Under the pieces are notes generated by a model. It ran no database searches, was not told where the DNA came from, and saw only the letters and a list, made by a program, of their open reading frames with translations. Positions 4,127-63,101 of a stretch of DNA of 64,000 nt are shown one piece after another (position 1 is the stretch's first letter; each line of letters begins with the position of its first letter). The translations under genes and the position numbers were made by a program. The DNA is from Candidatus Marinamargulisbacteria bacterium (GTDB lineage: Bacteria > Margulisbacteria > Marinamargulisbacteria > UBA817): assembly GCA_049889215.1 (NCBI GenBank), contig JBMHDV010000027.1, positions 29,594-93,593 on the forward strand, written 5' to 3'.

Positions 4127-4145
4127 TAAAGGGGGGGACACCCTT
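4127..4145. terminator. Possible short bidirectional hairpin between convergent gyrA and yqeG-like gene
   Basis: aaggg / ccctt 5-bp stem with 7-nt loop (4128-4144) flanked by A-runs; weak. Confidence 0.25.
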
Positions 4146-4668
4146 AAAATGAACTTAATATGGAGGCTTGAAGCTTGTATTGTTGTTGCTTCAAAAAAGA
4201 GATATTCGAAACATCAATTGGATCAACATAAATTGACGACATCCCTGTGATATTCGCCAACAAAACATCAGTAAATAACTGATCGCCAATTAAAACAGCT
4301 TCACTAACATCAATGTTATAATCCTGAATTAAACGTCTCATGGTAAAAACAAATGGCTTACATGCAAATGTTACAGCAGGTAAGTTTAACTGCTTTGATA
4401 CATGTTGGATTCGATCAACACTTGAATTGTTAGAAATTAAAATAATATTATCAAAGTCATGGGTCGCAATTGCATTAAACAAATTTAATGACTGCAATGA
4501 GACAGCTGTTTCTCCATATTTTATAATTGTATTATCAACATCAAAAAATAATGACTTAATGCCATCGGCTTTTAATAATTGAAAATCAATGTCAAAAATA
4601 GACTCATAAATCAGCCTTGGCCTTAAATAATCATATAAAATAGAATTAAATCCCGTGGATTTAGTCAT
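4144..4668 (-). CDS. HAD-IIIA family phosphatase (YqeG-like)
   Basis: HAD motif I FDVDNTI; 174 aa from ATG at 4668 fits YqeG-type proteins; the longer ORF to 4713 would overlap hisG by 53 nt; ATG overlaps hisG stop (ATGACTAA). Confidence 0.7.
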   Translation of the reverse strand: MTKSTGFNSILYDYLRPRLIYESIFDIDFQLLKADGIKSLFFDVDNTIIKYGETAVSLQSLNLFNAIATHDFDNIILISNNSSVDRIQHVSKQLNLPAVTFACKPFVFTMRRLIQDYNIDVSEAVLIGDQLFTDVLLANITGMSSIYVDPIDVSNISFLKQQQYKLQASILSSF

Positions 4669-5296
4669 TAACAAACTTGGAAAAACCATCATGAATGGCC
4701 TGAACATCAGCAAATTTAGTCATCATTGAAGATCGATTAGCAACCAACCGTGCCGTAGAGTAAAAGACCTCATCATACTCAATCAAGCCATTTTCCTTTA
4801 GTGTTTGACCAGTGGCTGTTAAATCACAAATAACATCTGCGACACCAGTCATTGGAGCCAACTCCATCGCACCATATAATTTGATTGGGACACAACGAAT
4901 TGATTTTTTTTGAAAATAATCCAAAGTTGCCATCTCATATTTAGTAGCAACACGAACATTATGCGATAAATATTTAGATTGATATGATTCTGGACCAGCA
5001 ATCACCAAACGGCAATCACCAAACTTTAAATCCAATAACTCTAATAAATCAGGAGACTGTTCTTCTAATACGTCCTTACCTACCACACCCATATCTGCAG
5101 CACCTTCTTCAACGTATACAGGAACGTCCCATGGTCGTACCTTCATTAACTGAATTTTTCCAGTAGTATCAATGGTAGATAACTGTCGTGATTCTGATAA
5201 GTCATTATCAAATACAATGCCCATTCCATCAAAGAATGACATGGCCTTTTTCCATAAATACCCTTTCGCACAGGCAATTGTTAGTGGTTTAGTCAT
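4661..5296 (-). CDS. hisG: ATP phosphoribosyltransferase, short form
   Basis: Translation MTKPLTIACAKGYL...RPWDVPVYVEEGAADMGVVGKDVL...CDLTATGQTLKENGL typical of HisG; start set at MTKPLT (ORF runs to 5443 but that extension passes through hisZ). Confidence 0.85.
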   Translation of the reverse strand: MTKPLTIACAKGYLWKKAMSFFDGMGIVFDNDLSESRQLSTIDTTGKIQLMKVRPWDVPVYVEEGAADMGVVGKDVLEEQSPDLLELLDLKFGDCRLVIAGPESYQSKYLSHNVRVATKYEMATLDYFQKKSIRCVPIKLYGAMELAPMTGVADVICDLTATGQTLKENGLIEYDEVFYSTARLVANRSSMMTKFADVQAIHDGFSKFVND

Positions 5297-6157: not shown

Positions 6158-8476
6158 TTACTGAACAAGTTCTTTAGTAGAAATATGTTGAAACACACTG
6201 ATAGGAAGGTTTAATACCAACTCATTAACAGATAAATGATGAAAATTTACCGGTAAAAACTGCAAAAACTCTTTGAGTAATTCGCTATAATAATCCTCTT
6301 CTTGCATCCCCATAATCTGCATTCTTGCTTGATGCACTGGTTGAGATGCATTCGGTGGTTCATAATCTGGAAAAATAATGATCCCTGATAATGAATTTAA
6401 CTTAGAAACATCTGAAAAAAGTAAAAACTGAACCTGATGAGGACGATCTTTGTATTTCTGGCGTGTAATTCGATGAAGCTTTTTCTTCCAATACCTCATC
6501 TTTTGTTTTGACAAAACTACCACATGAACAGGGGCAAAAGATAGCTTTGATTGAATAAATGAAACAATCTCATGATCCGACCTAGCCATAATTGATACAC
6601 CAGGCTGTGAAGCATCATCAAAATGTTCATCAACCAGCTTTGAACCAATCTGCCAAGTAAAAAAGTCTGTACTCGTATAAACAGCAGCTGATTGATGAAT
6701 AATCACCCGTTGAGCATAATTCATTACATTTTGGAACAATTCGGTTGGAAAAATAGACAGTTTAACCAAACTACAATTGCTAGGGCGGTACTTCAGTGGA
6801 GATGCAATAAAAAGAACATCTCGATCACTAACATCCAATAATTGCTTTAACATAAAGCCAAAAGCATTAACTTTTAAAATGATATCCCGAATCCAAACCG
6901 ACAACTGCGGCACAATATAATATGACACACGACCAAGGATTGTTGTTAACTCTGTTATATGATGTTGAATTAAGTGAATGTGACCAATAATTTCTTGCCA
7001 CTCAAAGGTTTCCTTGACATTATCATTTACGTAAACCTCTCTCTGAGAATAATAGTGATTAACAGACAAGGCACCAATAAGAGCATCAAACTGTTGTAAC
7101 ATTTGGTTTTTTTCGTAATGAATTAAATCTATAGCATGTCGAATACGTGCAATATCCTGAATAAGTTTAAGCGGATGCTCTTCCTTCCTCGTCAAAAATC
7201 TAATCACAGATGAAAACTGAATGATCATATCATTCAAAAACTTAAATGAATATGATGATATTGATTGCTTAAATAACTCAGAGAAAACACCATCATAATT
7301 AGAGAAATGATAATACACAATAGCAAACAACGAACAAAATTTAGGCAATTGCATGGAAATCTGAGAAAATGTTTCTATATGACAAGAAACCGATTGATTT
7401 GATTGAAAAGCGGCTTCAATATGCAACGCTAAAAACGTCGTCTTTTCCATAGATTTTGAATCCATCGAAGAATCATTAATTTGGTAAAATCGTTGTTTTA
7501 AACTATCATTTAAATCATTCAAATAAAATGTTTTTGTCTGACGAAGCCAACCGATAATTGCAATTATTTCAACAACTTCAGAGTGAGATGCCGCTTGCTG
7601 CATAAGCCTCGGATAAAACGAATCAATATTGGGTGGAAAGGCATAGTTTGATGGAGAGTCAATAAAAGGCATATCCAACGAATACTTCGATCGCACAATA
7701 TAAATTGTTCGTTGATCATGATCAGTAACATACGATTGTAGTTGTGAATCATCCCCCAAACATCGCGTAGCATGACGCTGCCCAATACGATCAACATCAA
7801 ACTCAGCATACCCATGATGATCCATATCACGATCATGTTGATTATCTGGGGCACCAACTGAAAAAAAACGCAATACAAAACGAATAAGATGCTGTATTGA
7901 TTTCTGCTGAGACTGTTTAAGTAGTGCCACTTCAAACGTCGATATCTTTAACGAATAATGCTTAGAAAAATAATGCATTAATTGAGCCAACCCCATAGCA
8001 TCATCCAATGCACGGTGTGACTGAGCTTGAGAAATATCAAACTGATGGAATAGCTGCTGTAGTTGCAAGCTACGGATGGTTGGATGAAACCACTTAAAAA
8101 CATCTTGAGAGTCCACCCAAATAAATGATTCAGGAACAAGGTGATAATAATCACAAACAGACATGTAACTCATTCGATCTAAAAATGCGTTATGTGCGAT
8201 AATTGTTGAGTTTTTAATAAACTTATAAAAATCTAAATATACCTCAGTAAAAAGCGGGGCTTCATCCAGTGCATCGTGATCAATACCAGTTAAATTTAAA
8301 ACAAAATCACTAACACGCGTCTCAGGTTTCACCAATGTCGAATACGTCTTACCAATCACCCCATCAATAATCTCAACACAGCCAATTTCCATGATTAAGG
8401 ATTTGCCATCCAATGGATATGTTTCAAAATCTAAAACAACGACTCGATGCATAGTATTCATCATACCGGTGAACAA
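6158..8476 (-). CDS. DEDDh (DnaQ-like) 3'-5' exonuclease domain fused to ~600-aa C-terminal region of unknown function
   Basis: Exo I VVLDFETY, Exo II IIAHNAFLDR, Exo III HRALDDAMGLAQ in first ~170 aa; no Walker A or helicase motifs seen in the remainder. Confidence 0.7.
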   Translation of the reverse strand: MFTGMMNTMHRVVVLDFETYPLDGKSLIMEIGCVEIIDGVIGKTYSTLVKPETRVSDFVLNLTGIDHDALDEAPLFTEVYLDFYKFIKNSTIIAHNAFLDRMSYMSVCDYYHLVPESFIWVDSQDVFKWFHPTIRSLQLQQLFHQFDISQAQSHRALDDAMGLAQLMHYFSKHYSLKISTFEVALLKQSQQKSIQHLIRFVLRFFSVGAPDNQHDRDMDHHGYAEFDVDRIGQRHATRCLGDDSQLQSYVTDHDQRTIYIVRSKYSLDMPFIDSPSNYAFPPNIDSFYPRLMQQAASHSEVVEIIAIIGWLRQTKTFYLNDLNDSLKQRFYQINDSSMDSKSMEKTTFLALHIEAAFQSNQSVSCHIETFSQISMQLPKFCSLFAIVYYHFSNYDGVFSELFKQSISSYSFKFLNDMIIQFSSVIRFLTRKEEHPLKLIQDIARIRHAIDLIHYEKNQMLQQFDALIGALSVNHYYSQREVYVNDNVKETFEWQEIIGHIHLIQHHITELTTILGRVSYYIVPQLSVWIRDIILKVNAFGFMLKQLLDVSDRDVLFIASPLKYRPSNCSLVKLSIFPTELFQNVMNYAQRVIIHQSAAVYTSTDFFTWQIGSKLVDEHFDDASQPGVSIMARSDHEIVSFIQSKLSFAPVHVVVLSKQKMRYWKKKLHRITRQKYKDRPHQVQFLLFSDVSKLNSLSGIIIFPDYEPPNASQPVHQARMQIMGMQEEDYYSELLKEFLQFLPVNFHHLSVNELVLNLPISVFQHISTKELVQ

Positions 8477-8493
8477 AGGATATTTAAAAATAA

Positions 8494-9342
8494 TTATTCA
8501 AGGGACTGGAAAATAGTTAAAAATCGATCATGCCCTGACAAATCTTTTTTAAACAGCAACGAGGTATTCGTTGCAGCTGTTAAGTGCTGCCGTTGTTGAT
8601 AACCAATTTCGCAAATAAGATCATGCCCCCCTTCAGTCGCTCGACCAATTAAATCTAAAATTATGGCCATACCATTATTATCTGCAACAAGTGCAACTTT
8701 TGGCTCAAGTTTCACAACATCATCTAATAAAATATACTCATCATCAGAAATATAAGGGGGATTCGAAACAATAATACAATGAGCATTGGGTGGAACATCA
8801 AAACATTCAACATCAAAAAAATCGCTATGAAAAAATTCAATATTAGCCACATCATGCCGACGTTGGTTTATACAAGCAACATCAAATGCGTGTCGGGAAA
8901 TGTCCCACGCTTTGAATGAAATATTTGGAAACTGCAATGCCAAATCTATCGAAATTACGCCAGAACCAAAACCACACTCAAAAACATGAATGTCATGGCC
9001 CTTTAGATGTTGTATTCGTTTTGCAGCAATACCAACCAGTTCTTCTGTTTCTGGACGCGGAATTAAGACACCCGGTCGAACAAAATATGGTCGACCATTA
9101 AAGTAAGCTGATTCCAAAATATAACTCAAAGGTTCACCAGCAATGCATCGATCCACACATTGTTGGATGGATGTAATCTGGGTGGATGTTAGGGTATAGT
9201 CCTTTGAAAGCAATACCAGATATTTTTCATTTAAATGTTCTTCAATAATAAATAATACAGTCACTTCTGCATCTGGTAGTTGTGCAGCAATTACTTGGTT
9301 TACCCAATATCGATACGCTTGATCAATTCGATTATTGACCAA
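8494..9342 (-). CDS. prmC: Release factor glutamine N5-methyltransferase
   Basis: SAM-binding VFECGFGSG and catalytic NPPY motif; overlaps prfA stop by 11 nt, conserved prfA-prmC pairing. Confidence 0.85.
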
Positions 9343-10798: not shown

Positions 10799-11254
10799 AT
10801 GTTACTTGAACGATTGAATGGTCAGCCTGAAAATGTAGAGTTTAGTATTCCTTGCATGTCCGATTATGTAGGTGTCGTTAGATTGGCAGTATCTGGTCTA
10901 GCAACTCGAATGAATTTTTCTATAGAAGAAATTGAAGATATTAAAATAGCTGTTTCCGAAGCTTGTACAAATTCAGTGCAATATGCATTTGATGACCCAT
11001 CTGAGCAACGTGTATTCATTACCTTTAATTTATTTAAAGATAAACTCGAAATTATTGTGAAAGATCATGGCAAAGGGTTTGAAGTTGAAACACTCGAAAG
11101 AACCCCTATTGAAGAACGTAAATTAGATGAGATTGATGAAAATGTCCCACGTCTTGGCCTGGGAATTACATTCATCAAAAGTTTAATGGATGAAACCAAC
11201 ATCACCTCACAAATTGGTGGTGGAACAACCATTCAAATGGCAAAACATATTTAA
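10799..11254 (+). CDS. Anti-sigma factor / Ser-protein kinase of the RsbW/SpoIIAB family (HATPase_c)
   Basis: N-box-like EACTNSVQYA, G1 box VKDHGKGF, G2 box GLGITFIKSLMDE, GGGTTI near C-terminus. Confidence 0.75.
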   Translation: MLLERLNGQPENVEFSIPCMSDYVGVVRLAVSGLATRMNFSIEEIEDIKIAVSEACTNSVQYAFDDPSEQRVFITFNLFKDKLEIIVKDHGKGFEVETLERTPIEERKLDEIDENVPRLGLGITFIKSLMDETNITSQIGGGTTIQMAKHI

Positions 11255-11260
11255 TAACCA

Positions 11261-11548
11261 TTGCTTAAGTTAATATTTATTTTTTTTATGTCCGTATCCT
11301 TCTACGTGTTTTACCAACGCAAATTATCACGCGTCTTGAAGCCGGGGTTTGTAACACCCATATCAGCAATTCTAACTCTAGTTTCATTAGCACCAATGGG
11401 ATTTATAGTTGGATTAATTAGCGTATACGCCATACCAAAACTATTAACAAAACAATCCAGTATGCATTCAATGATTTGCGCTAAATGTGGTACCCTATCC
11501 AAAAAGGGGGAATCCATATGCAGAAAGTGCAAAAACATGCTGTCCTAA
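11261..11548 (+). CDS. Small membrane protein with C-terminal zinc-ribbon (CxxC...CxxC)
   Basis: Two hydrophobic helices then CAKCG...CRKCKN; TTG start at 11261 or ATG ~11288; overlaps start of next gene by ~30 nt. Confidence 0.35.
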   Translation: MLKLIFIFFMSVSFYVFYQRKLSRVLKPGFVTPISAILTLVSLAPMGFIVGLISVYAIPKLLTKQSSMHSMICAKCGTLSKKGESICRKCKNMLS

Positions 11549-12780
11549 CAGACAATAATCAACCATTACCATATTCAGTTGAACAAATTAAATTGGTAAA
11601 ACAAAAATTAAACACAAAGCAAGAGACCGAAGTTCTTTATAATCAAACGCCAAAAAGTACGGCACCGTATTTACCAATATTCATTTTAACTTCAATAAAC
11701 CAACAATATTATGAGATAGAAATTAACCCATCAGAATCATACCGAATCACATGCAACCCATGGAAAGATGAAAACTTATTAAATCATCAGAAATTGATTA
11801 CGGTTTGTCCGACGCTTTTCATTTCATATTTAGCAAATCATCATCCAACAAATGCATGCATTGGGGCATTAAATATTCTGGCTACAATAATCGATCATTA
11901 TAATATTTCCGATCTTCATTTTATAAAATCAACCGTTATTTTTAAACAAAACCAACAAGAAAGATTCCGTTTAATTTTTGCTGAAACAGACATGAAGAAA
12001 CTGCGCTACTATTTAAAACTCCATGCTCATATGGATCCATCCAACACACAACAACCCCAAGATGGGTCCTTGTCGTTTAAATTTGAACATATTCAATTAG
12101 ATCTTAGAGTTGCCACTCTACCAACAAGAAATGAAGAAATGCTTTCTATCCGAGCTTTTAATCTGAAAAATAAAATAAAATCTTTAGCTGAATTAGGGTT
12201 TAACAGTAAAAAAGCCGCAGCAATTACACAAATGATTAAAAATAAAAACGGGTTAATCTTAATAACAGGCGCAACAGGTGCAGGAAAATCTACCACACTA
12301 TACGCACTATTAAAATTACTTAAAAAACGCCATGTTATTACAATTGAAGATCCCATTGAACAACCGCTCACAGATATTCATCAAACCAACATTAATAATA
12401 AAAAAGGTTATACATTGGATGTGGGTCTCAAAGCAATTTTACGACATAATCCGGATATCATAGCCATTGGTGAAATTCGTGATGCAAAAACTGCTGATAT
12501 TGTGTTGCAAGCAGCATATTCTGGGCACCTAGTGATCGCATCACTTCATACAAATTCAATAGAAGCAACATTGCTCAGATTACAAAGTTTAGGATGTTCA
12601 CCTTTTTTAATCAGTTATTGCTTACGAGGAATCATTGCACAAGACCTAATCAGTTCAGCAAACAATAACGTTAAACTGGTAAGCAGTATTCTATTATGTC
12701 AATCACCGTTTATAATAACTGACTTAAAAAAAGAATTAACGACTTTCATAAAACATAATACACTGCTTCATAATGATTGA
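11518..12780 (+). CDS. GspE/PilB/PilT-family secretion ATPase (ComGA-like), orphan
   Basis: Walker A GATGAGKST, Asp box VITIEDPIE, Walker B IIAIGEIRD, His box LVIASLHTNS; start set at ATG 11518 with AAGGGGG SD; N-terminal ~230 aa unassigned. Confidence 0.8.
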   Translation: MQKVQKHAVLTDNNQPLPYSVEQIKLVKQKLNTKQETEVLYNQTPKSTAPYLPIFILTSINQQYYEIEINPSESYRITCNPWKDENLLNHQKLITVCPTLFISYLANHHPTNACIGALNILATIIDHYNISDLHFIKSTVIFKQNQQERFRLIFAETDMKKLRYYLKLHAHMDPSNTQQPQDGSLSFKFEHIQLDLRVATLPTRNEEMLSIRAFNLKNKIKSLAELGFNSKKAAAITQMIKNKNGLILITGATGAGKSTTLYALLKLLKKRHVITIEDPIEQPLTDIHQTNINNKKGYTLDVGLKAILRHNPDIIAIGEIRDAKTADIVLQAAYSGHLVIASLHTNSIEATLLRLQSLGCSPFLISYCLRGIIAQDLISSANNNVKLVSSILLCQSPFIITDLKKELTTFIKHNTLLHND

Positions 12781-13336
12781 TATTATCTGCAACCAACTTT
12801 TAAATAATAAAATCGGAATTATTGCACATGATACATTGCCCGGTATTGTTGCAACAGCCACCGAAGAAAATGCAAAACGGATTCAACAAATCAAAGAGCG
12901 ATCTGAATCAAAGGGGTTTATTTTACTCATACCAACATTCAATCATATTCACCAATTTGCTACCAACATTTCATCTGATGCTTCAAAGTTAATGAACACA
13001 TACTGGCCAGGGCCACTTACTCTAATTTTTGAAAAGCAGCCTCAAGTATCACCACTACTTACTGGAAACAAAAGCACCATTGCCATTCGCCAACCAAATC
13101 ATCCATTATTAAACTCAATCTTAAATAAAATAAATCAGCCACTACTGTCCACCAGTGCTAACTTAAGTGGCGAATCAACATTATCTAATCAATTGCTAGC
13201 CGCGGTTGATTTTACGCATGGAAACATAGCTTTAACTAAGCACGCAGTAGCATCAACCATTGTAGATACAACTCAAAAGAATCTAGTCATTCTACGACAA
13301 GGTAAAGTTAAAATTGCTAATCATTCGATAGGTTAA
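12773..13336 (+). CDS. tsaC: L-threonylcarbamoyladenylate synthase (YrdC/YwlC family)
   Basis: 187 aa; YrdC-family motifs (PGPLTLIF, STSANLSGE). Confidence 0.75.
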   Translation: MIDIICNQLLNNKIGIIAHDTLPGIVATATEENAKRIQQIKERSESKGFILLIPTFNHIHQFATNISSDASKLMNTYWPGPLTLIFEKQPQVSPLLTGNKSTIAIRQPNHPLLNSILNKINQPLLSTSANLSGESTLSNQLLAAVDFTHGNIALTKHAVASTIVDTTQKNLVILRQGKVKIANHSIG

Positions 13337-14213
13337 GTAACCCTGATAAGTAGTTATATTCCCCTAAAAACCAATATGAAAATGAACGTAAAGCTGATGT
13401 TTTAGAATCACGTAATCGGTAAATCATTCGGAAAATAATATTCTGACGAGATAAACGTTTACGAATAAAAACAGAAATTGGATTCAATCCCAAAAACAAT
13501 TTTAATTCTGGGTGCTTCTGCATAAATATTTGAGCAGATTGGCCCATATTAAATTTCCGCTCGGCTTTTTCTTTATCGGAAATAACATGATAGTGATAGT
13601 TTATCGCCGTTTTAATATAGCGCAATGGAATCCCCCGCTTTTTAAACCGGTAACCCAACTCTAAATCTTCCCAACCATAATTCTTAAAATCTAGCGAAAA
13701 CCCCTTTTCAACAACAAACAAAGATTTAGGAAATGAAATATTTCCAGTTAAAAAGTAATACCAGTCCAATACATCTCCGTGACGATATTTAGTAGGAACT
13801 TGCGTATGTTTATCATTAACGCTAGGGGGCCAATCATAAGAATCTAAATTATAAGCCAAACCTTCAAAGCAACTAACATCCTGACTGGTCTGATGTGCAG
13901 TGTAATGTGCTTGAACAAAGTCAGGGCCTGGCACCATATCTGCATCAGAAATAACAATAATGTCACTTTTAGCCACTGCCACCCCAGCATTTCTTGCCTC
14001 AGCTTTACCCGAAGGGTTTTCACGTTGAATGAAGTTTAATTGAAACAATGATGGCGTTATATTAGCCACCATATCAGCTGTACCATCCGTCGAAAACGAG
14101 TCAACAACAATTACTTCAAAAGCAAGCTGAGTCACCTGCTTACTGTAACCATCTAGAACACGTTTTAAACGATCACATTGATTATAAGACCCAATAACAA
14201 CACTAATGTCCAT
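13317..14213 (-). CDS. Family 2 glycosyltransferase
   Basis: N-terminal [10 protein letters not shown]...VDSFSTDGT and DxD-like VISDADM motif of GT-A fold GT2 enzymes. Confidence 0.8.
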   Translation of the reverse strand: MDISVVIGSYNQCDRLKRVLDGYSKQVTQLAFEVIVVDSFSTDGTADMVANITPSLFQLNFIQRENPSGKAEARNAGVAVAKSDIIVISDADMVPGPDFVQAHYTAHQTSQDVSCFEGLAYNLDSYDWPPSVNDKHTQVPTKYRHGDVLDWYYFLTGNISFPKSLFVVEKGFSLDFKNYGWEDLELGYRFKKRGIPLRYIKTAINYHYHVISDKEKAERKFNMGQSAQIFMQKHPELKLFLGLNPISVFIRKRLSRQNIIFRMIYRLRDSKTSALRSFSYWFLGEYNYLSGLLNLSND

Positions 14214-15594
14214 TTTTTTGGGCGTCTTTCCAATAGATCAGAGGTGTTAAAATATACATACCAAAAATCATAACAAGAATGTCATATACATAAAAATTTT
14301 GGCCAGACTTTCCACGGATTAACATAGCAATAGAAAGCAATGTGAAAATAAACGCGGGGAATTGAACAAACCGTAAAAACCGTCGCTTAGCTGCCATATG
14401 ACGATGTGGATAAGGAAATCGAGACACCATTAAAACAGCCATCAAAACAATCACAGCCATAAAAACATACTCAGAATTAAACAACACCGAAATCTTAGAA
14501 AAAATAACAATGGAGGCAGCAAAAGGCGAAGGAATACCATCAAAGTAATCAGAATGCCCTTTTTCAGCAAATCGGATCAATCGATAACCTGTAGCTACTA
14601 AATATAACGCAGCTAACCCAAGTGCCCCAATCATAGAATATTGATCTAAATGCACGTAAATAACAGTCGAAGGAAGTAAGCCAAAACTTACAAAGTCAGC
14701 AATTGTATCCAGCTTAGCACCCAATGGTGTAGACGCATTTAAACGACGCGCAATCGAACCATCTACTGCATCTAAAACAACACAGATTACCAAAAAAAGT
14801 GCAGCAAATCGAAACTGCAAATTTAATGCAAAATAAATGCCAATCATACCAAAAACAACATTAGTAACTGATACAAAGTTTGGAATTAATGAACGTAATG
14901 CTTGCCGCGCTTTATCTTCGTCATTATTGTAACGTTTTAAATGCAGCCCCCATAAAAAGTGGTCAAAATAATCTATAAACGACCAAATGGTTAGCGCAAC
15001 AACTGTATAAATTAAAAACAGAAATACCCCCTGAGGCCATATCATAACCCAGTCAATTAACCATTGAATTGGCTGGAAAAAAACAGGAATATCAACTTTT
15101 TGAACTGGAACAATCCCGAATAGTATACCGCACACGGGAAATGTAAGGGCTGTTTTCAGCTTACCTGTAAATTGAGCAGGAATAGAATCCCCTCCATTTT
15201 GTACTGAATAAACACGCAACCCCATCATAGCAAACTCTCGAGCTAAAATAATAAAAACAGGAAACGACGTAATCACCTGCATCTCCAACAACGGTAAGAA
15301 TAAAAGAACAAGAATCTTATCAGCCAATGGATCGAGAATTTTACCTAACTCAGACTCAATTTTTAATCGACGAGCAATCCAACCGTCCAAATAATCCGTT
15401 AAACAAATCACTGTGTAAAAGAGAATAACAAGGATTTGGGTAAAGTTGGTTGTATACGGTGTCATCCAAAATATACACCCAACCCCAACGATACGTAAAA
15501 TCGTTATAATATTAGCTAGCTGATTCAACGATTTGCTCCTTTTTTTATATTTGTTACAAACATTATAGTTTTGAAAGTGTTTCCAAGCAAACAA
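14203..15594 (-). CDS. Tandem CDP-alcohol phosphatidyltransferase fusion: N-terminal PgsA-like plus C-terminal PssA-like domain
   Basis: Two complete D-G-x2-A-R-x8-G-x3-D-x3-D signatures: [27 protein letters not shown] and [31 protein letters not shown]. Confidence 0.8.
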
Positions 15595-15620: not shown

Positions 15621-15650
15621 TTGACGATTATTCACACCACAAAGTATAAT
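15621..15650 (+). promoter_or_regulatory. Sigma-70-type promoter for rpmH operon
   Basis: TTGACG (15621-15626), 18-nt spacer, TATAAT (15645-15650); SD AAGGA ~8 nt before ATG 15675. Confidence 0.5.
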
Positions 15651-15674: not shown

Positions 15675-15809
15675 ATGAAAAGAACATTTCAACCAAATAA
15701 TCGTAAACGTAAAAAAACACATGGCTTCTTAGTTCGAATGAGAAGTGTTGGTGGACGTCGCGTATTAAATAATCGTCGCCGAAAAGGCCGCCATAAAATC
15801 GCTGTTTAA
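15675..15809 (+). CDS. rpmH: 50S ribosomal protein L34
   Basis: [44 protein letters not shown], near-consensus L34; listed ORF start 15621 is an upstream extension. Confidence 0.95.
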
Positions 15810-42209: not shown

Positions 42210-42470
42210 ATGTCAGACATTGGCCCTATCTCTGCCGATCTCCCATCTCTTGCAGAAGAGGTAATAAATTCACCTGACACAATTTCGACAACTTGTCGCG
42301 CATGTGTTGAGTCATCATCATCGGTTGATGAACTTAGCGATAAACTAAAGATACTTGAAGAAAGCATAGGAAACAGCTCGCCAGCAACAATTCAAATGAT
42401 CAATGAAATCAAAACAATGATTGAATCAGATACGAGTTTATCAGAAATCCAATCCAAACTGTCCAGTTAA
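42210..42470 (+). CDS. Small Ser-rich hypothetical protein
   Basis: 86-aa ORF immediately following previous ORF. Confidence 0.3.
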   Translation: MSDIGPISADLPSLAEEVINSPDTISTTCRACVESSSSVDELSDKLKILEESIGNSSPATIQMINEIKTMIESDTSLSEIQSKLSS

Positions 42471-44122
42471 AATGTTTGAGACACATTGAAGTGAACCATA
42501 AGCTCATCATTTCCAAAACCAAAATCCAATCGTAAAGGTATCACAGACTCTAACAATCGAACACCAAATCCGTACCCTCGATACAATTGATCAAACAATT
42601 GATTGAATTCATCATTTATAAATCCACCATCTAAAAATAAAACTCCAGCAATATTTTGTGATAATCGTTGCCTTAATTCAAAATTAAAAGATAAACGATA
42701 GTTTCCAAGAAAAGAAAACTCATTGTATCCTCTCAGTGAATTTGCGCCACCTAACGAAAACCGCTCAGTTTCAAATGTTGATTCTTGGCCTAATTTTTTA
42801 TATCTACCCCCAAAAAGTTGAACTGCAAATGTCGATTGATTAAGCGTATAAAAGTAAGCATTTGTTAGACGAAACCGATGAAATGAAATCCCACCTAAAT
42901 CAATAAGTCCCAAGTTGCCTCCAATATCATAATTCAATGCAATTCGATGCCCAAATGTGGGATATTGAAAATGATCAACTTTGTTTTGATCCAATAAAAA
43001 AGAGATGGATCGTGTGGTATAGCCAGAAAAGTCACCGTCATCTTGCGGAACTACAGTCTCATTGCGTAAGGTGGTGGCAATTGCCAAATATTGACGCTTA
43101 ATTTGATGCATGAACGACACTGCACCACCTGAACGAATAGTTTTATAAATAGTTAAATCCTCTTGATAAACTTCAGAAAGAAATCTTTTGTAAAAACTAA
43201 TGTCAAATGAAACTGGAAAAGAATTAAATAACCAAGGTTGATTATATCGAAATTTATACGCTCGAGTCTCTACATTGTTTAAATAACCCAACTGGAATTG
43301 CAACTCTATAAAATCTGTGTAAATAAACCGGTTGTACCACTTAAGCTTAGAAAATAGAGCCACACCTTTATCATCTTCCAATTCCTCTAAACCAATATCC
43401 AACATATTTTGCTTTCGCTCCCTTATCTGATACGCTAATCGAACATTATCCGATGAAACCATCTCAATGGTTGGTCCGTTGACACTACTAAAGTTTGACA
43501 ATTGCGATAATGATTCAAGATCAATATCTAAAATTCGCCGATTGAGCTGATCACCGTTTGATAACAAAAGTTCACGATAAATAACCCAAGACGGGGTTGT
43601 ATCCAATCCCATAACGACAATCTCACTGATTGTAGGTGACTCAATCATAATCGTCATTGTTCCAGCATCAGAAACCGAAATTGATTTAACGGATGCGGTA
43701 ATATATCCCCAATCAACCAATTGTTTATTAATTGCAGCAACATCATCTTTTAAATATTTAAAGTTTAAATAGTCACCAGATGTATGAGCCATCACCATCG
43801 TCAGTTGACGCATTGGAATTGGAGAACCAACAACATGAATTTTTGTTATCACCGGGTTATACTGAATATTAACAACTAACCGACTACCTCGCTTCTTCTT
43901 ATCAAATTGAAATGTTATGGATTGATATACACCATTCTGTCGAATTTGATTTAAAAAAGCTTCAACTTGCTGCTCAGATGAAATCACCCCATTAAACCGA
44001 GAATTTATCTTTGAAATCAAAAACTGATCATCTGTCCCAGTCACAGCAACCGACTGAATAAAGGCCGAATGAGCAGCAGTAGAAAAATAAATAAATAAAA
44101 AGATATTAAAAAGAATACGCAT
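42467..44122 (-). CDS. Omp85-family outer membrane protein (BamA/TamA-like)
   Basis: Signal peptide, POTRA-like N-terminal region, C-terminal beta-barrel ending in aromatic residue (NVSQTF). Confidence 0.75.
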   Translation of the reverse strand: MRILFNIFLFIYFSTAAHSAFIQSVAVTGTDDQFLISKINSRFNGVISSEQQVEAFLNQIRQNGVYQSITFQFDKKKRGSRLVVNIQYNPVITKIHVVGSPIPMRQLTMVMAHTSGDYLNFKYLKDDVAAINKQLVDWGYITASVKSISVSDAGTMTIMIESPTISEIVVMGLDTTPSWVIYRELLLSNGDQLNRRILDIDLESLSQLSNFSSVNGPTIEMVSSDNVRLAYQIRERKQNMLDIGLEELEDDKGVALFSKLKWYNRFIYTDFIELQFQLGYLNNVETRAYKFRYNQPWLFNSFPVSFDISFYKRFLSEVYQEDLTIYKTIRSGGAVSFMHQIKRQYLAIATTLRNETVVPQDDGDFSGYTTRSISFLLDQNKVDHFQYPTFGHRIALNYDIGGNLGLIDLGGISFHRFRLTNAYFYTLNQSTFAVQLFGGRYKKLGQESTFETERFSLGGANSLRGYNEFSFLGNYRLSFNFELRQRLSQNIAGVLFLDGGFINDEFNQLFDQLYRGYGFGVRLLESVIPLRLDFGFGNDELMVHFNVSQTF

Positions 44123-47100
44123 AACTTAACGACCACCTCGGATCAAACACCGTTACCTCTGAATACTCATTTGCATTCTTCAAACTCACTGAAAAATTGG
44201 GTTGAAAATAATACGTAACATCAACTCGAGTCAACTTTACACCTCTAGCATTTTCATTAACATAGTCTGTTGATAAATTTAGATCCGAGCGTAATGTTAA
44301 AAACAATTTCTCTTTATATAGATTTGATACAGTTTGAATACCAAATAAATCCTCATTAATTTTGCTATCTGAATCTGAACTAAGAATTGTTCGGCCAAAG
44401 TCATAATTTAACCTTAAATCATAAAGACCAACCCGCTTTGCAAAACGCCGCTCATACGGTCGTAATGAACTTCGGATAAATGTATTAATACGATCTCGTC
44501 CATAATTAGTGAAATCCGTCTCCTCTGAATTAGAAATAATTTTGGGTAGTAATAGATTAAGGCCGTAATAGCTAGCTTGCGAACCACTAACATCTGTTTG
44601 CATTAAATCAACATCATACGTCCCATAAAGCTCATATTCTGGAAACGTCAAAAAAGCATTATTTAACCCAAAATCAAAAACAGTCACCTTAGCCGCTGTA
44701 CCCGACAAATCTCCATTAATCGATAACCCAATGGCATCATAAGGCAACGTATCATTTCGAACATTTTTTGAAGACACTTGAGTATCTATTTTTCGTAGCG
44801 CCCTTAAATTCAACGCCACCATCATTTGCTGAAAACCGTCATCTTGAATCGGAGATAGATCCACACGCTGATCTGTGACATACTCCGGGACATCTTTAAA
44901 AAAATGGTTTTGTTGTGACTTTGGCATTAACTCATAAACACCATCAAAAATAGAAATAGATCCATCATAAAAATATAAACTTGTCGTAAATTGAGGGGAA
45001 TTAATTGAACCGGATATTTGAAAGGGGGCTGAGCGATTCTTTTCATCCAATTCCAGAAAAATGTTATTAGCAAATCTAAAAATGCCATCACCTACCAAAC
45101 TTCCTTGTATATAGTTCCCAGAACCAAGTGTTGTTGTTAAATCCAATAAAATTCTAGGCTTTGTTTTATTTTTAGTACGCTTTGGCAAATTAAAAATACC
45201 GTCTCGAAAAATAAGGCTTCCAGACAATTGAGGTCCGGATTCATTGGCCTTACCAAGGCTATACTTAATGTTTTCCAAAGCGTTTTTTTCCCAATAAAGC
45301 GTCTGGTCCCCCTGAAATTTGATTTGGTTTGCAAGAACGTCACCAGAAAAAAAGACAGGAAAGTTCATCGAAAAAAATGTGTCTTTCATTGTTAGGTTAT
45401 AGGCAACTTTGGCTTTCTTTTTCATTAAATCGATAGGACCTAAGTCAATATCTCCAGAAATATTAAACTCATTTTTCTTGTTTTCCCGAGTGACTCGTCT
45501 AAAGGTATGGTCTCCTTGCCATATAACATTTAATACATCCAGACTTAGCACAGATGAATCAACACGATAACGATATCTTGGAACTTGAATGACAGATGAT
45601 TGCCCATCATTAGAGGACACTACCCTTAATTCAAAATCATTAAAATCAACATCCAATGAACGAACGGACAAATTATGAATTGGACCAACAAATTTCCACT
45701 TCACATACCCAGTATTATAAAGACTTTCAATATATGCTGAGGCACCTGAAAAAATATTTAATGACGCATCAGAAAATTCAAATCCCATATCCAACCATTT
45801 ATCTTTATAGTTATATTCACCAAGAAGAAAACCGTTATAGTTTTTACCCAAATATTGCATTAACGAATTCGTAATCTCATGAGTGTTTTTCTCCTTATTA
45901 TACGACAAATCTATTGCAAGAGATTCAACTTCGACCTTATTGAACACCAACTGATCAACATAAAAGTTATAATTTTCAATAGAGTCAGTTATATCTTTTG
46001 ACTTTAATTGCATCAAATCGGCCTGGACCATTTGCATGTAATCAAAATCCGTTAAAATAATATCAATTTTGTTTTTGCCTAAATCACGATTATTAATCGA
46101 TAAATACCCACTAAGTAATCCTTTAATTTTATTGTCAGCCAATGCTTTTTTCTGATATTGAGAGTAAAATTGCATAAAGCTTTGAAGGTTATCATGCTGA
46201 TATTTGTGATAATCAAATGCTTCATTGAAAAAAAACTCATTTTCTTGTGATTGCATTGTAAAATCATCAAGTTTTTTAATTATTGTGTAATAAATATCAG
46301 ACACAGTATTTAAATTTAGATTGGCTGCCTTCATGTTCAAATCATAAAATGAATAAAATGTATCAGAAGATGCGGTTTTAGAGAAATCTATAGAGCCATT
46401 TGCCAAAAATCGTCCTCGATTTAATTGAACTTGAAACTGATCAAAAGTTAGCGTATCGCCCAATTTTTTACCATCAAATAAAAGATACTGGATTGGAATG
46501 CCATCCAATTCCAAATCCATGGACTCTACTAAACCATCAAAATTTAAATCTGATAGATCCCCAAAAAAACGCCCCTTTACACTAACATCACCCAATAATT
46601 TCTGACGCGAAAAAAAGTCCAAAGCATCCAATCTAAAAAAACCTTTCTTCTTTTGCGTAACATCGAATGCCCCTTTTGAGCTTAATGAACCAGCTAAATC
46701 TAACTCATGAAGCCCACTAAGACGACATTGATTAATGGTAATTTCCCCGCCATTCGTCTCAACTTCTAAAAATACATCACCAAGTTGACCATATTGTAGC
46801 TTAAACCCCTGAATATTTAATTTTGATTTAAAGTTTAGCTCTGATGCGTGATCATACAATAAATAACCAGTAGCAACACCGCCAAAGGATCCAAATAACT
46901 GAGAATTAGTAAGTTTCGGCAATAACATTAAGTCAAACTGATCAAAATTTAAATCCAAAAGAATCGGTTTTTTCTGGTATAACTTAACCTCACCACTTAA
47001 CTTAGTTGTCCCATACACTAAATCATTAATTTTAAATTTATGGCGCTGATTATCAAATTGATAACCTAAATCGAAAGCGTCAAATCGTTGATTATTGTAG

Positions 47101-48809
47101 GCAATGCCACGCCCTTTTAGCTGACTTTCAAACACCCCATTAAAGCCCTGCTCTGACCAAGAAACCTCACCTTTAGATTCCATTTCTTCCAAATAATACG
47201 CCTGCTGATCTGGCTGAGCTAGTTGCCCAAGGCCTGACTGATTAAACGATAAACCAGCTGAACTTAACTTTCCCGAAAACTCAAGGGCTTGGCCATTCGA
47301 CAAATAAACACTAAAAACAGGCAATTTCAACACTTGTTTTTCCTGCCTCAAAATAGCTTTTATTTTTTTTATTGTAATTCCATAAAAAGTTAAATTTAAT
47401 TGATCAAGATTAAATTCGGTTTGATTGTTTTTAGAGTCTGAGGCAAGATAAATATTTGCTGTCACTTCTGAATTAAGTACAGGAACAAAAAGAGGTAATC
47501 CTGCCAATTCAATATGATAATCATTCTTATAAATATTACCCGATACCTCATAAGATGATGATGACAAAGAGGTGAGATACCCTGGTTGACCGTCTTTTGC
47601 CACCAACTTTAAATTTACCGGATCGATATTAATCAGCTTGGATTTAATTTCACTTGTTTTAAGATAAGTGGTAAAAGTTGGGCGTTGAAACAAACCCGTC
47701 AATTTAACCATAACTGATGCATCAAAATCTAAATCAGTTGGTGGCGCTAACTTTAAATATGAAAACACATCTTCTGGTTGAATGACACCGTCAGATGCCA
47801 TCGATAAATTAAACCGTCGGTTATAAAAAGAAATGTCCCCAGAAACATTAAACGGAACATCATGAATCATTGCCCGAATGTTTTTTAATATTAAGGAAGC
47901 TTCATTATGATTTGAAAAAACAACCTGACCAGATACATTTTTCAAAGGCACCTTAAATCGAGCTGGATTAATGGATAAATAATCAAAATTAATAGCAATA
48001 TTATAGAAAAACCTCTTTTTAATTGCTTTATTTGAATTGCTCTTTATTTGACCTGAAATCTGTAAAAAGTCATCAGAAATATTAACTTTTGAAAATGGGA
48101 CTAAATATGATGCCCAGTCATCCGTCACTAATGAAACAGCTTTAAAATCATACAAGTATTCAGTCCCCTGAATTTCACCCTGAATTGAACTTCGATCAGC
48201 AGATCCAGCAATAGAAAAATCAAAATCTAGCTTCACCTTTCTTGATGAATCAAATGCAATTGTCCCTTGCCCACTTGAAAAGGAAGACGAAAACTCCTGG
48301 GCGACTTTTCCCCAACCTCTAACATCCGTATACGTACCAGATATGTCGTTAAATTGAATTGTTAATCGTGATGGAGATGCCCCGCTCTCACCACTTTTCG
48401 AAGATAATGCTTTAACAAACTCAATGATATTAACTTTTTTTGATTCTAAGCGATTAACATTTAACAGAACCCCGTTAACATTTACTTTACCAATAATATC
48501 CGACAGACCATTGGTGATGAACCGCAATGACGGATAAATCGTAACTAAATCAGCTTTAATAAAATACGTTTGGTTCTTTACAGGTGCTTGACTGTAAATC
48601 ACTACATCTTTTAAAACAATTCCAGAAAACAAGTTTCCCGATAATTGTCTAAAATCGATAGGCCTAGCCAAAGCACGCTCAATACTTTTTTCTAAATTAT
48701 CTTTCGCTATTTTATTAATAAAAGGAACTTTTAACGCGTATCCTGATACCAAAGAAAAAACTAAAAATACAAAAGCAAAAAAAGTAGTCAGCCGAAACAA
48801 TCGTTTCAT
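44106..48809 (-). CDS. TamB/AsmA-like giant translocation-and-assembly protein
   Basis: 1567 aa, N-terminal signal-anchor, beta-rich repetitive body, C-terminal DUF490-like segment; directly upstream of Omp85 gene with 17-nt overlap. Confidence 0.7.
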   Translation of the reverse strand: MKRLFRLTTFFAFVFLVFSLVSGYALKVPFINKIAKDNLEKSIERALARPIDFRQLSGNLFSGIVLKDVVIYSQAPVKNQTYFIKADLVTIYPSLRFITNGLSDIIGKVNVNGVLLNVNRLESKKVNIIEFVKALSSKSGESGASPSRLTIQFNDISGTYTDVRGWGKVAQEFSSSFSSGQGTIAFDSSRKVKLDFDFSIAGSADRSSIQGEIQGTEYLYDFKAVSLVTDDWASYLVPFSKVNISDDFLQISGQIKSNSNKAIKKRFFYNIAINFDYLSINPARFKVPLKNVSGQVVFSNHNEASLILKNIRAMIHDVPFNVSGDISFYNRRFNLSMASDGVIQPEDVFSYLKLAPPTDLDFDASVMVKLTGLFQRPTFTTYLKTSEIKSKLINIDPVNLKLVAKDGQPGYLTSLSSSSYEVSGNIYKNDYHIELAGLPLFVPVLNSEVTANIYLASDSKNNQTEFNLDQLNLTFYGITIKKIKAILRQEKQVLKLPVFSVYLSNGQALEFSGKLSSAGLSFNQSGLGQLAQPDQQAYYLEEMESKGEVSWSEQGFNGVFESQLKGRGIAYNNQRFDAFDLGYQFDNQRHKFKINDLVYGTTKLSGEVKLYQKKPILLDLNFDQFDLMLLPKLTNSQLFGSFGGVATGYLLYDHASELNFKSKLNIQGFKLQYGQLGDVFLEVETNGGEITINQCRLSGLHELDLAGSLSSKGAFDVTQKKKGFFRLDALDFFSRQKLLGDVSVKGRFFGDLSDLNFDGLVESMDLELDGIPIQYLLFDGKKLGDTLTFDQFQVQLNRGRFLANGSIDFSKTASSDTFYSFYDLNMKAANLNLNTVSDIYYTIIKKLDDFTMQSQENEFFFNEAFDYHKYQHDNLQSFMQFYSQYQKKALADNKIKGLLSGYLSINNRDLGKNKIDIILTDFDYMQMVQADLMQLKSKDITDSIENYNFYVDQLVFNKVEVESLAIDLSYNKEKNTHEITNSLMQYLGKNYNGFLLGEYNYKDKWLDMGFEFSDASLNIFSGASAYIESLYNTGYVKWKFVGPIHNLSVRSLDVDFNDFELRVVSSNDGQSSVIQVPRYRYRVDSSVLSLDVLNVIWQGDHTFRRVTRENKKNEFNISGDIDLGPIDLMKKKAKVAYNLTMKDTFFSMNFPVFFSGDVLANQIKFQGDQTLYWEKNALENIKYSLGKANESGPQLSGSLIFRDGIFNLPKRTKNKTKPRILLDLTTTLGSGNYIQGSLVGDGIFRFANNIFLELDEKNRSAPFQISGSINSPQFTTSLYFYDGSISIFDGVYELMPKSQQNHFFKDVPEYVTDQRVDLSPIQDDGFQQMMVALNLRALRKIDTQVSSKNVRNDTLPYDAIGLSINGDLSGTAAKVTVFDFGLNNAFLTFPEYELYGTYDVDLMQTDVSGSQASYYGLNLLLPKIISNSEETDFTNYGRDRINTFIRSSLRPYERRFAKRVGLYDLRLNYDFGRTILSSDSDSKINEDLFGIQTVSNLYKEKLFLTLRSDLNLSTDYVNENARGVKLTRVDVTYYFQPNFSVSLKNANEYSEVTVFDPRWSLSYAYSF

Positions 48810-51595: not shown

Positions 51596-52083
51596 GGCAA
51601 AATTGGCAGTCGATTAACGGAGTTTTCAGCTTCCATTAAAACACCATTTTCTTTATAAGATTTGAAAATAAAATGGGTGGTGGTTGATTTAACATTTTCT
51701 ATTGTTGCTAACTTATCAAAAACAAAATGTGCGATATCTTTATGGTCTTTACCTTCAACAACAACCAAGAAATCATATTTACCTGAAACAAGAAAATGTG
51801 ATTTCACATTTGGAAAACAATAAACCTTTTTAGCAATTGAGTCATATCCAGTATCTTTTTCTGGCCGGATACTTAATTCAACCAATGCCTTAATTGAAGA
51901 TGTTTGAATTAAATTTTCGTTAATGACAGTTGTAAACTGACAAATAATTCCAGCAGACTTCATCTCATCAATATGCTTAATCACATCATCAACATTTAAA
52001 TTAACCATACTGGCTAATTCGTCATTTGTATATCGAGAGTTTTGCAATAATAGATCCAAAATCATTCTTTTATTTTTATCCAT
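51592..52083 (-). CDS. Lrp/AsnC-family transcriptional regulator
   Basis: N-terminal HTH (LDLLLQNSRYTNDELASMVNLNVDDV) and C-terminal RAM domain. Confidence 0.85.
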   Translation of the reverse strand: MDKNKRMILDLLLQNSRYTNDELASMVNLNVDDVIKHIDEMKSAGIICQFTTVINENLIQTSSIKALVELSIRPEKDTGYDSIAKKVYCFPNVKSHFLVSGKYDFLVVVEGKDHKDIAHFVFDKLATIENVKSTTTHFIFKSYKENGVLMEAENSVNRLPILP

Positions 52084-52163
52084 ACATAAAAAGTATAATT
52101 TTATAGCAAATAAGTAAATAAAATTAAGCGCTGAGACGTATGAATTAATAGTAAAGTTTTAAT

Positions 52164-52514
52164 TTAAATCACCGTAGCAAGAATTTCTTTGTTAGAAACC
52201 GTTTGCTTATTAAACACATGATCAATATCATAGGCGTCCATTTCTTTTAAGGATAACTCAATCGACTGAGAGCTTAGAAAATTAACTCTAGACAAACAAG
52301 GCTTTGTTTTAATTTGCCGCACAAACTCTAAACCATTCATATTTGGCAACATTAATTCAGTAAAAATAACATCAACACTAGTTCGAGCTAAAAAAAGCAT
52401 TGCGTCTTTGGGGCAAAATAGCGAATATACCTCAACTGGATATTTCGCTAATAATTCAATAAAGCGACAGTGAACACTTACATCAACATCAATAATTAAA
52501 ATTCGTTGATTCAA
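52164..52514 (-). CDS. Orphan receiver (REC) domain protein with Glu in place of the phospho-acceptor Asp
   Basis: ILIIDVDV acidic pocket, DVIFTELMLPNMNGLEF aligning to CheY ISDWNMPNMDGLEL with D57 replaced by E; TTG start. Confidence 0.6.
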   Translation of the reverse strand: MNQRILIIDVDVSVHCRFIELLAKYPVEVYSLFCPKDAMLFLARTSVDVIFTELMLPNMNGLEFVRQIKTKPCLSRVNFLSSQSIELSLKEMDAYDIDHVFNKQTVSNKEILATVI

Positions 52515-52537
52515 ACTAATCCTTTTAGAAGAGGTTT

Positions 52538-52565
52538 AGTTCTAGTATAACAAAGAATTAGAACT
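52538..52565. promoter_or_regulatory. Inverted repeat in divergent promoter region between REC and XRE genes (candidate operator)
   Basis: agttcta ... tagaact, 7-bp arms with 14-bp spacer. Confidence 0.25.
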
Positions 52566-52616
52566 CATTCAATTCTACTTATTTACAATCACGATAATTT
52601 TTTTTATAATTTTAAT

Positions 52617-53267
52617 ATGGGAAGATTTGGATCAACACTTAAGCGACTTCGTGAAAATAGAAGCATATCAAAAGTTAAACTTGCTAAATGCATTGGCACT
52701 TCCGACGCATACATTCGCCAAGTTGAAAACCAAGGCTACAAACCACCAACATTTGATCTTTGTGAGAAGATATCTTCAGAACTATCATTAACTAATAACG
52801 AGAAACTTGAACTTTATGAAGCTGCTTTTATGGAAAGAATCGAATCTGAAAAAGAATTTTATAGCTTATTAAAAAATTCTATTTTTTCAAGCAGAAACCT
52901 TCCATCTACAGCATCAACAAATGTGATTACCGCAAGGTTAAAACTGCGCCAAACAGTTAAAGAAGATTTATCTTCTATTTCTTATGATGTAGAGCGTATA
53001 TTTTTTGATTATTTCCAAAAAAGCAACATTTCTATCGATAACATTGTAATTAATCAATCAAGCGTTACTTTAAATATAATGGATCAAGAAGCAACAACAG
53101 TTGAAGCAAATTTACCGAATATAATGAAACTGATTTCAAGCAAAATTAAAAGTGATTTTCCAAATTTTGCTGTCGCACCTTCGATTTGGGACAGTAATTT
53201 CGAAGTCATAAAAATATCAGAAACAGCCCAAGCCCGAACTGATAATCATGAATTATCTCGTGTTTAA
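52617..53267 (+). CDS. XRE-family HTH protein with uncharacterised C-terminal domain
   Basis: N-terminal LKRLRENRSISKVKLAKCIGTSDAYIRQVENQ HTH_XRE pattern; stop 9 nt before STAND gene. Confidence 0.7.
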   Translation: MGRFGSTLKRLRENRSISKVKLAKCIGTSDAYIRQVENQGYKPPTFDLCEKISSELSLTNNEKLELYEAAFMERIESEKEFYSLLKNSIFSSRNLPSTASTNVITARLKLRQTVKEDLSSISYDVERIFFDYFQKSNISIDNIVINQSSVTLNIMDQEATTVEANLPNIMKLISSKIKSDFPNFAVAPSIWDSNFEVIKISETAQARTDNHELSRV

Positions 53268-53276
53268 CCACGTTAA

Positions 53277-56765: not shown

Positions 56766-56810
56766 TAATTCAGTATTGAAAAGCAAGACTAAAGTGAATA
56801 TTATATAATA

Positions 56811-57329: not shown

Positions 57330-57340
57330 GATTAAGTCTT

Positions 57341-63018: not shown

Positions 63019-63101
63019 CGCCCAAATGATAAATTAAAATATAACACTAAACTTACTATGTGTTGAATTTATTCAGACATATTGTCAAACTAGTGGTAAA
63101 G

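Follow-up and report, generated by a model that had tools for sequence, protein, structure and literature searches.

We analysed a 64,000-nucleotide stretch of the genome of a Candidatus Marinamargulisbacteria bacterium (GenBank assembly GCA_049889215.1, contig JBMHDV010000027.1, positions 29,594 to 93,593 of the forward strand; hereafter the window, numbered from its first letter). On its minus strand, an uninterrupted open reading frame (ORF) of 463 codons at 14203-15594 encodes two CDP-alcohol phosphatidyltransferase domains in a single chain, the first resembling PgsA, which synthesises phosphatidylglycerol phosphate (PGP), and the second the phosphatidylserine (PS) synthase PssA. Pfam family PF01066 matched the ORF in two separate stretches (E = 1.9e-43, 148.9 bits against a gathering cutoff of 22), and both copies of the motif D-x2-DG-x2-AR-x8-G-x3-D-x3-D are complete and legible directly in the sequence. 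The gene and its parts are listed below; residue numbers throughout refer to the revised protein of 441 amino acids (aa).

14203..15528, minus strand: fusion gene as revised, 441 aa plus stop, start codon TTG at 15528
15529..15594, minus strand: in-frame 22-codon 5′ extension of the mechanically called ORF, probably untranslated, containing the AGGAG ribosome-binding site; homologs cover 95% of the ORF
14929..15528, minus strand: PgsA-like half, residues 1-200, with six transmembrane (TM) helices and a short helix at 149-162 (matches TIGR00560, 7drj and, by Foldseek, 7drk)
15319..15396, minus strand: first CDP-alcohol motif, D45-x2-D48-G49-x2-A52-R53-x8-G62-x3-D66-x3-D70, followed by K71; invariant in 59 homologs
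14887..14928, minus strand: junction, residues 201-214, comprising the YNND linker (200-203, its first residue lying in the preceding part) and then an amphipathic helix of 11 residues
14206..14886, minus strand: PssA-like half, residues 215-441, with eight helices and a two-strand sheet (328-330, 372-374) (matches TIGR00473, TIGR04217, 7b1k and 7pow)
14695..14772, minus strand: second CDP-alcohol motif, D253-x2-D256-G257-x2-A260-R261-x8-G270-x3-D274-x3-D278; invariant in 59 homologs

The initial annotation had described a 463-aa polypeptide with two complete CDP-alcohol transferase signatures. The two-domain ORF and both signatures stand as described, whereas the protein is likely to be shorter, with its translation start at the TTG at 15528 and a length of 441 aa. 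We placed the start there because an AGGAG box (15536-15540) lies 7 nt 5′ of this codon (15528-15526) and because the homologs that are 439-443 aa long start with the equivalent MNQLAN. No convincing sigma-70 promoter for the fusion gene was found in the 146-bp divergent intergenic region upstream, where the promoter scan picked only that of rpmH.

The same fusion recurs in related genomes, where the initial annotation had proposed to look for it. In a collection of 5.8 billion proteins, more than 120 protein clusters contain the same 430-470-aa two-domain protein (92-97% query coverage, 40-99% identity), and the assemblies behind these clusters are separate (JGI, ENA, NCBI and Logan). At the DNA level, the same single ORF was found in nine independent loci with 45-81% protein identity; the sequence of five relatives in this identity range, each on its own contig, was read again. 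An artefactual ORF, whether produced by an error of sequencing or assembly that joined two adjacent genes or by recent duplication within a single gene, has only prior plausibility on its side, adjacent lipid genes being common. A frameshift or assembly error was looked for and is ruled out by the shared architecture of the clusters and loci; the junction is moreover conserved and its length near-constant. Recent duplication is likewise ruled out, since the two halves have in common only a 34-residue motif match (34.7 bits), and a stand-alone PgsA of 186 aa, from a Verrucomicrobia metagenome-assembled genome, shares 39% identity with the N-terminal half along 130 residues. The chance that the ORF is an artefact is therefore negligible. 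Because the halves are alike only in the motif and the N-terminal one is closer to a stand-alone PgsA, we regard the protein as a fusion of two different subfamilies: it is real and conserved, is itself uncharacterised, and is built from two well-known enzyme types.

The named clusters belong mostly to Candidatus Marinamargulisbacteria or Candidatus Margulisiibacteriota, a phylum placed in the Cyanobacteriota/Melainabacteria group. One full-length member with 45% identity (cluster P0071) carries the NCBI label Thermoproteota archaeon, probably through a binning error, as all other named members are bacterial. The family is narrow: among 1.84 billion representatives clustered at 50% identity and scanned exhaustively with HMMER, only 35 reached E <= 1e-30, about 17 of which are full-length family members (36-66% identity). 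A scan of genome contigs with the single protein returned only two close relatives and two single-domain matches.

Within the family, an alignment of 59 members with 40-87% identity shows no variation in the 16 catalytic-motif residues (eight per half) or in K71. Purifying selection acts on both halves: compared with the loci L002 and L007, which are 78-81% identical to the window protein, dN/dS was 0.11-0.14 for the C-terminal half and, where measurable, about 0.035 for the N-terminal half, dS being saturated in the comparison with L007. The PgsA-like half is the more conserved of the two, with a mean identity of 62% against 42% for the C-terminal half.

We assigned the two halves separately with NCBIfam profile hidden Markov models (HMMs), with solved structures and with the residues of the acceptor sites. 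Scanned alone, the N-terminal half was matched best by TIGR00560 (pgsA) at 107.4 bits, 1.7 bits short of the equivalog cutoff of 109.1; the score of 117.5 obtained with the whole protein is inflated by a cross-match from the other half. The closest solved structure by sequence is PgsA of Staphylococcus aureus (SaPgsA; 7DRJ, E = 1.1e-16). An AlphaFold2 model was built on the 59-member alignment (mean predicted local distance difference test score (pLDDT) 85.4, predicted template modelling score (pTM) 0.71), and its N-terminal half resembles 7drj and 7drk with Foldseek TM-scores of 0.74-0.77 (probability 1.00, 28% identity). In SaPgsA, the phosphate of glycerol-3-phosphate (G3P) is held by K83, R110, R118 and K137, and T138 bonds the 2′-OH (PMC8640168). 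A HMMER alignment places K71, R97, R105, K125 and T126 at these positions, each of them invariant or at least 90% conserved; Y181 of SaPgsA falls outside the alignment, and the pocket comparison covers the five residues only. The PgsA-like nature of this half is thus supported by HMM, structure match and acceptor-site residues alike. Compared with SaPgsA, the N-terminal half keeps the six-TM fold of CDP-alcohol transferases, the full catalytic motif and the G3P-phosphate pocket. It differs in that SaPgsA is a stand-alone homodimer of ~190 aa, whereas the PgsA domain here is the first half of a chain of 441 aa; between TM5 and TM6 this domain carries an additional short helix (149-162), and its TM3-TM4 segment is unusually conserved.

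The N-terminal half also matches the CAP-type cardiolipin synthase model NF053678 (66.1 bits against a cutoff of 240). This match would fit an enzyme that condenses phosphatidylglycerol (PG) with CDP-diacylglycerol (CDP-DAG) to cardiolipin, in a protein whose other half acts as a structural dimer partner or regulator; more generally, only one half might be catalytic, since CDP-alcohol enzymes need a dimer partner and a degenerate partner is conceivable. The pgsA model is, however, ahead of the cardiolipin synthase model by ~41 bits, and the full cationic G3P-phosphate pocket (K71, R97, R105 and K125) is kept. The eight motif residues of each half are invariant in all 59 sequences, and dN/dS lies well below 1 in both, which argues against a degenerate half. 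We consider a cardiolipin synthase or a protein with a single active half to be very improbable.

The C-terminal half alone scored 97.5 bits with TIGR00473 (pssA), 9.5 bits short of the cutoff of 107, and it aligned over the full length of two archaetidylserine synthase profiles, TIGR04217 (99.0 bits against 200) and NF038087 (92.4 against 240). The TIGR00473 score of the whole protein (120.1) exceeds the cutoff, again inflated by a cross-match from the other half, and the whole-protein NCBIfam pass was not taken at face value once the halves had been scanned separately. On these profile scores, the subfamily assignments of both halves appear as clear best matches lying marginally below the curated equivalog thresholds. 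We also looked for another CDP-alcohol transferase subfamily to which the second domain might belong, and found none that fits better: phosphatidylcholine synthase (NF045887) reached 53.6 bits against a cutoff of 300, inositol-phosphate transferases at most 41.4, and phosphatidylinositol phosphate (PIP) synthase (NF045883) 25 against 170.

By sequence, the closest solved structure for the C-terminal half is the PS synthase of Methanocaldococcus jannaschii (MjPSS; 7B1K/7POW, E ~1e-11, 7.6e-12 for 7b1k), which, with SaPgsA, was the only solved relative that sequence comparison brought up, and the modelled fold matches 7pow and 7b1k with Foldseek TM-scores of 0.80-0.81. Four residues of MjPSS, D62, S63, D66 and F105, coordinate the catalytic serine (Ser1), and two arginines, R101 and R104, are indispensable (PMC8633023). 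D62, S63, D66, F105, R101 and R104 correspond to D274, T275, D278, F320, R316 and R319. Apart from position 275, where the family consensus has Ser and the subclade of the window sequence has Thr, each of them is invariant or conserved to at least 90%. The position equivalent to Ser65 of MjPSS, a Mg ligand, is Ala across the whole family, as we take it to be in B. subtilis PssA too. The model further contains two short strands (328-330 and 372-374), which flank the half-length helices, where MjPSS has its β1/β2 sheet, and its helix 204-214 corresponds to the N-terminal horizontal amphipathic helix described for MjPSS. The likeness therefore extends to the eight-helix fold, the horizontal helix, the two-strand cytoplasmic sheet, the Ser1 site and the R-x2-R-F element, at an identity of only 22-24% and with Thr275 in place of Ser and Ala in place of the Mg-ligand Ser65. 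MjPSS is a stand-alone homodimer, whereas here the horizontal helix is tethered by four residues to TM6 of the PgsA domain. Counting this structure-based evidence as stronger than the sub-threshold HMM scores, we find the assignment of the C-terminal half as a PssA-like enzyme of type II (the CDP-alcohol family) to be supported. The best HMMs, the closest structure by sequence and fold, and the conserved acceptor-site residues thus bear out, for both halves, the PgsA-like and PssA-like identities given in the initial annotation.

The C-terminal half might still be active on a head-group alcohol other than serine (threonine, choline, glycerol, inositol phosphate or another acceptor), in which case the protein would make PGP and a lipid other than PS. 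This is suggested by the scores of the isolated half, under the pssA cutoff and far under those of archaetidylserine synthase, by the substitutions at the Ser63 and Ser65 equivalents, and by the faster evolution of this half. On the other side, the pssA and archaetidylserine synthase models, at ~98 bits, stand well clear of the phosphatidylcholine synthase and inositol-phosphate transferase models; D274, D278, F320 and the R316-x2-R319-F320 element are conserved; and Ser is the family consensus at position 275. Another acceptor is, in our judgement, unlikely.

CDP-DAG is the branch point between the anionic lipids (PG and cardiolipin) and zwitterionic phosphatidylethanolamine (PE), and PgsA and PssA are ordinarily distinct proteins that compete for it. 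From the assignments above we infer that the fusion is probably a bifunctional branch-point enzyme, a PGP synthase and a type II PS synthase in one protein. One polytopic inner-membrane protein would thus join both branch-point enzymes covalently. Its N-terminal half would convert CDP-DAG and G3P to PGP and CMP, with a PgpP-type phosphatase then taking PGP to PG, and its C-terminal half would convert CDP-DAG and L-serine to PS and CMP, the PS presumably being decarboxylated elsewhere to PE. Fusion would fix the two activities at a 1:1 stoichiometry in the same place, so that the anionic and zwitterionic branches would draw on the same local CDP-DAG pool. The reading also draws support from the PgpP-family phosphatase gene in the window and from the distant proteins in which the same domain order occurs, both described below. 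Several points weigh against it. Both halves, taken alone, fall just below their NCBIfam equivalog cutoffs, and Thr and Ala replace the two serines of the MjPSS site. In addition, no psd, cdsA, cls or other lipid gene adjoins the fusion gene in ten neighbourhoods including that of the window, and none of psd, cdsA and cls was found among the scanned window ORFs of at least 150 aa.

The topology of the chain is compatible with two active sites on the same side of the membrane. Homology and hydropathy indicate six membrane helices in the PgsA-like half, the 14-residue helix 149-162 being too short to cross the bilayer; with six spans, the chain is back in the cytoplasm at about residue 199. The four-residue YNND linker leads straight into the amphipathic helix and then into TM1 of the PssA-like half. 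The two DG-x2-AR motifs are found where helices end on the cytoplasmic side, which is also their place in the reference structures, and both active sites and the domain join are accordingly predicted to face the cytoplasm. Evolution has kept the junction rigid: in 55 of the 59 sequences, 32 residues lie between S183 and P216, both of them invariant, and the overall range is 31-34 at identities down to 40%.

The arrangement of the two halves relative to each other was considered in the light of the known homodimers. Of all 40-residue blocks in the protein, residues 61-100, which correspond to TM3-TM4 of the PgsA half, are the most strongly conserved, and TM3-TM4 forms the dimer interface of SaPgsA (PMC8640168). 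When MjPSS dimerises, the horizontal helix of one protomer touches helices 4 and 6 of the other (PMC8633023). For this protein of two roughly equal halves, the pTM of 0.71 compares with a value of ~0.5 that we estimate for confidently folded but mutually unplaced halves. Taken together, this pTM, the fixed linker length, the conserved TM3-TM4 of the N-terminal half and the tethered horizontal helix suggest that the two halves may pack together as a pseudo-heterodimer within the molecule. The stand-alone enzymes being homodimeric, the halves may pair within one chain, with the PSS-type horizontal helix resting against TM6 of the PgsA half in the way that it rests against the other protomer in MjPSS.

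A more far-reaching proposal is that the fusion is an obligate pseudo-heterodimer, in which each half replaces the homodimer partner of the other, the two sites face a shared cytoplasmic cleft and CDP-DAG entry region, and mechanical or allosteric coupling between them sets the PG:PE ratio of the membrane. We put this forward tentatively and think it rather doubtful. It has against it that the protomers of SaPgsA act independently, with a Hill coefficient of ~1 (PMC8640168), so that fusion need not imply catalytic coupling. Were the proposal true, the balance of anionic and zwitterionic lipids would be hard-wired, and the independent reappearance of this domain order in other phyla would speak of selection for coupling. 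E. coli is thought to balance these lipids by regulating a peripheral PssA.

Proteins with a PgsA-like domain followed by a PssA-like domain also occur outside the family. The exhaustive HMMER scan identified P0178, P0180, P0215, P0189, P0196, P0255, P0265, P0185 and P0187 as distant tandem proteins, which have the same domain order and match the same two HMMs with their two domains, whereas their identity to the fusion described here is 29-35% and their lengths and linkers differ. We came across no characterised protein among them. P0187, a compact Lys-rich protein of 363 aa, scored above both cutoffs (124.7 bits for pgsA and 150.1 for pssA), and the P0215 cluster (P0215/P0289, 515 aa) is named Verrucomicrobiota by NCBI. 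In P0185 (730 aa), the PgsA-like domain (7-222) and the PssA-like domain (485-630) are separated by an insert of ~250 residues. The stand-alone PgsAs P0162 and P0165 are closer to the N-terminal half of the window protein (42-50% identity) than the distant fusions are, which suggests that the fusion arose more than once.

A CDP-alcohol transferase domain within a bifunctional polypeptide has a precedent in the IPCT-DIPPS enzymes (NF041135). These enzymes, for example those of the Archaeoglobus structures cited in PMC8633023, still dimerise through TM3/TM4. The partner domain of IPCT-DIPPS is a soluble cytidylyltransferase catalysing the preceding step of one pathway, whereas the fusion would combine two membrane transferases for parallel, competing steps; the window protein matches NF041135 only weakly, at 25-34 bits where the cutoff is 580. 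Several members of the family have already been labelled with both enzyme names by the JGI pipeline. We found no paper describing a PgsA-PssA fusion or phospholipid synthesis in Margulisbacteria in the full-text literature, coverage of which is incomplete, and two Margulisbacteria genome papers contain no mention of phospholipid synthesis.

A conserved single-chain PgsA-PssA would offer a natural system for asking whether CDP-alcohol transferases need a dimer partner, could be of use for studying lipid-ratio control, and is a possible convenient target for structural work on CDP-alcohol transferases in heterodimeric form. A further prediction is that PS, and PE as well if a decarboxylase is present, accompanies PG in Marinamargulisbacteria; in cyanobacteria, which NCBI places in the same clade, the main phospholipid is PG. 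As the building blocks and the chemistry are well known and pipelines already label some family members with both activities, the advance would be incremental unless coupling of the halves is demonstrated.

The genes of the window that bear on the surroundings of the fusion and on its proposed pathway are the following.

13317..14213, minus strand: family 2 glycosyltransferase (GT2) gene, 298 aa (PF00535, E = 3.7e-25), whose start overlaps the fusion-gene stop by 11 nt
15675..15809, plus strand: rpmH (ribosomal protein L34, from its translation), divergent from the fusion gene, with a promoter-like site at 15621-15650
4144..4713, minus strand: YqeG/PgpP-family HAD-IIIA phosphatase (TIGR01668, 106.3 bits against a cutoff of 89.1; PF09419, 'mitochondrial PGP phosphatase')

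The initial annotation had placed the GT2 gene in the same operon as the fusion. The adjacency holds, given the overlap of the two genes, and we regard GT2 as a co-transcribed neighbour; a conserved link does not, as GT2 is found with the fusion only in relatives of at least 51% identity and hence is not a conserved partner. It lies immediately downstream of the fusion gene in loci L001, L002, L007 and L008 (at least 78% identity). In L009 (51% identity, 6337-8651) a gene for a family 9 glycosyltransferase (GT9; heptosyltransferase family, PF01075) is interposed, overlapping the end of the fusion gene. At 47% identity or less, no GT2 adjoins the fusion gene in L005, L006, L010, L011 or at the place of P0048, the last read from a gene listing without DNA. 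A functional partnership of GT2 with the fusion, for example in glycolipid head-group chemistry, was considered and is unsupported given this limited linkage and the GT9 gene of L009. No specific NCBIfam model scored above its cutoff for the GT2 protein, which more likely belongs to envelope-glycan synthesis than to phospholipid head-group chemistry. The GT9 gene of L009 hints at a role in making lipopolysaccharide core or envelope glycan, and a gene for a GmhB-like heptose phosphatase elsewhere in the window points the same way.

On the other side of the fusion gene, rpmH heads a divergent cluster that continues in the window with rnpA, yidC, jag and mnmE. The divergent rpmH-rnpA-yidD-yidC-jag-mnmE cluster also lies beside the fusion gene in L007, L009, L005 and at the place of P0048 (81%, 51%, 47% identity), and it is absent from beside the fusion gene in L006, L010 and L011.

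The YqeG/PgpP ORF, ~10 kb from the fusion gene and not adjacent to it, stands beside hisG and hisZ-like genes. YqeG has recently been shown to be the PGP phosphatase PgpP (PMC11804483). Judged by its profile match, the ORF is a candidate for the step from PGP to PG that would follow the PgsA half.

In other members of the family, the surroundings of the fusion gene vary. The 44%-identical member P0082 in L006 (6001-7356; ENA ERZ25072979 contig_2, 8.78 Mb, locus GC content 45%) is situated just downstream of a gene for a 1793-aa non-ribosomal peptide synthetase. In L005 (5691-5945), L010 (4728-4919) and L011, at 44-47% identity, the divergent gene next upstream belongs to the BolA family. In L011 (3060-4964 / 7758-8807), BolA is fused to a phosphoglycerate-mutase (iPGM) domain, and a gene for an LPG_synthase_C protein (PF09924) lies two genes downstream of the fusion.

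Further features were observed elsewhere in the window. An Omp85/POTRA protein is encoded at 42467-44122 (minus strand), directly downstream of and overlapping a 1567-aa ORF (44106-48809, minus strand) with no Pfam match; by analogy, the arrangement resembles TamA/TamB and would indicate a diderm envelope. On the plus strand, an ORF for a SpoIIAB-like anti-sigma kinase (10799-11254, assigned from its L007 counterpart) is followed by one for a T2SSE-type ATPase (11485-12780), the first ~170 residues of which match no Pfam family; this arrangement is syntenic in L007 and L009. The region 52000-64000 has a GC content of 27-31%, compared with 33-45% elsewhere in the window. A STAND-like AAA_16 ATPase of 1162 aa is encoded at 53277-56765, following an HTH_3 protein, and queA (57341-58366) lies between it and a 1550-aa ORF (58366-63018) with no Pfam match.

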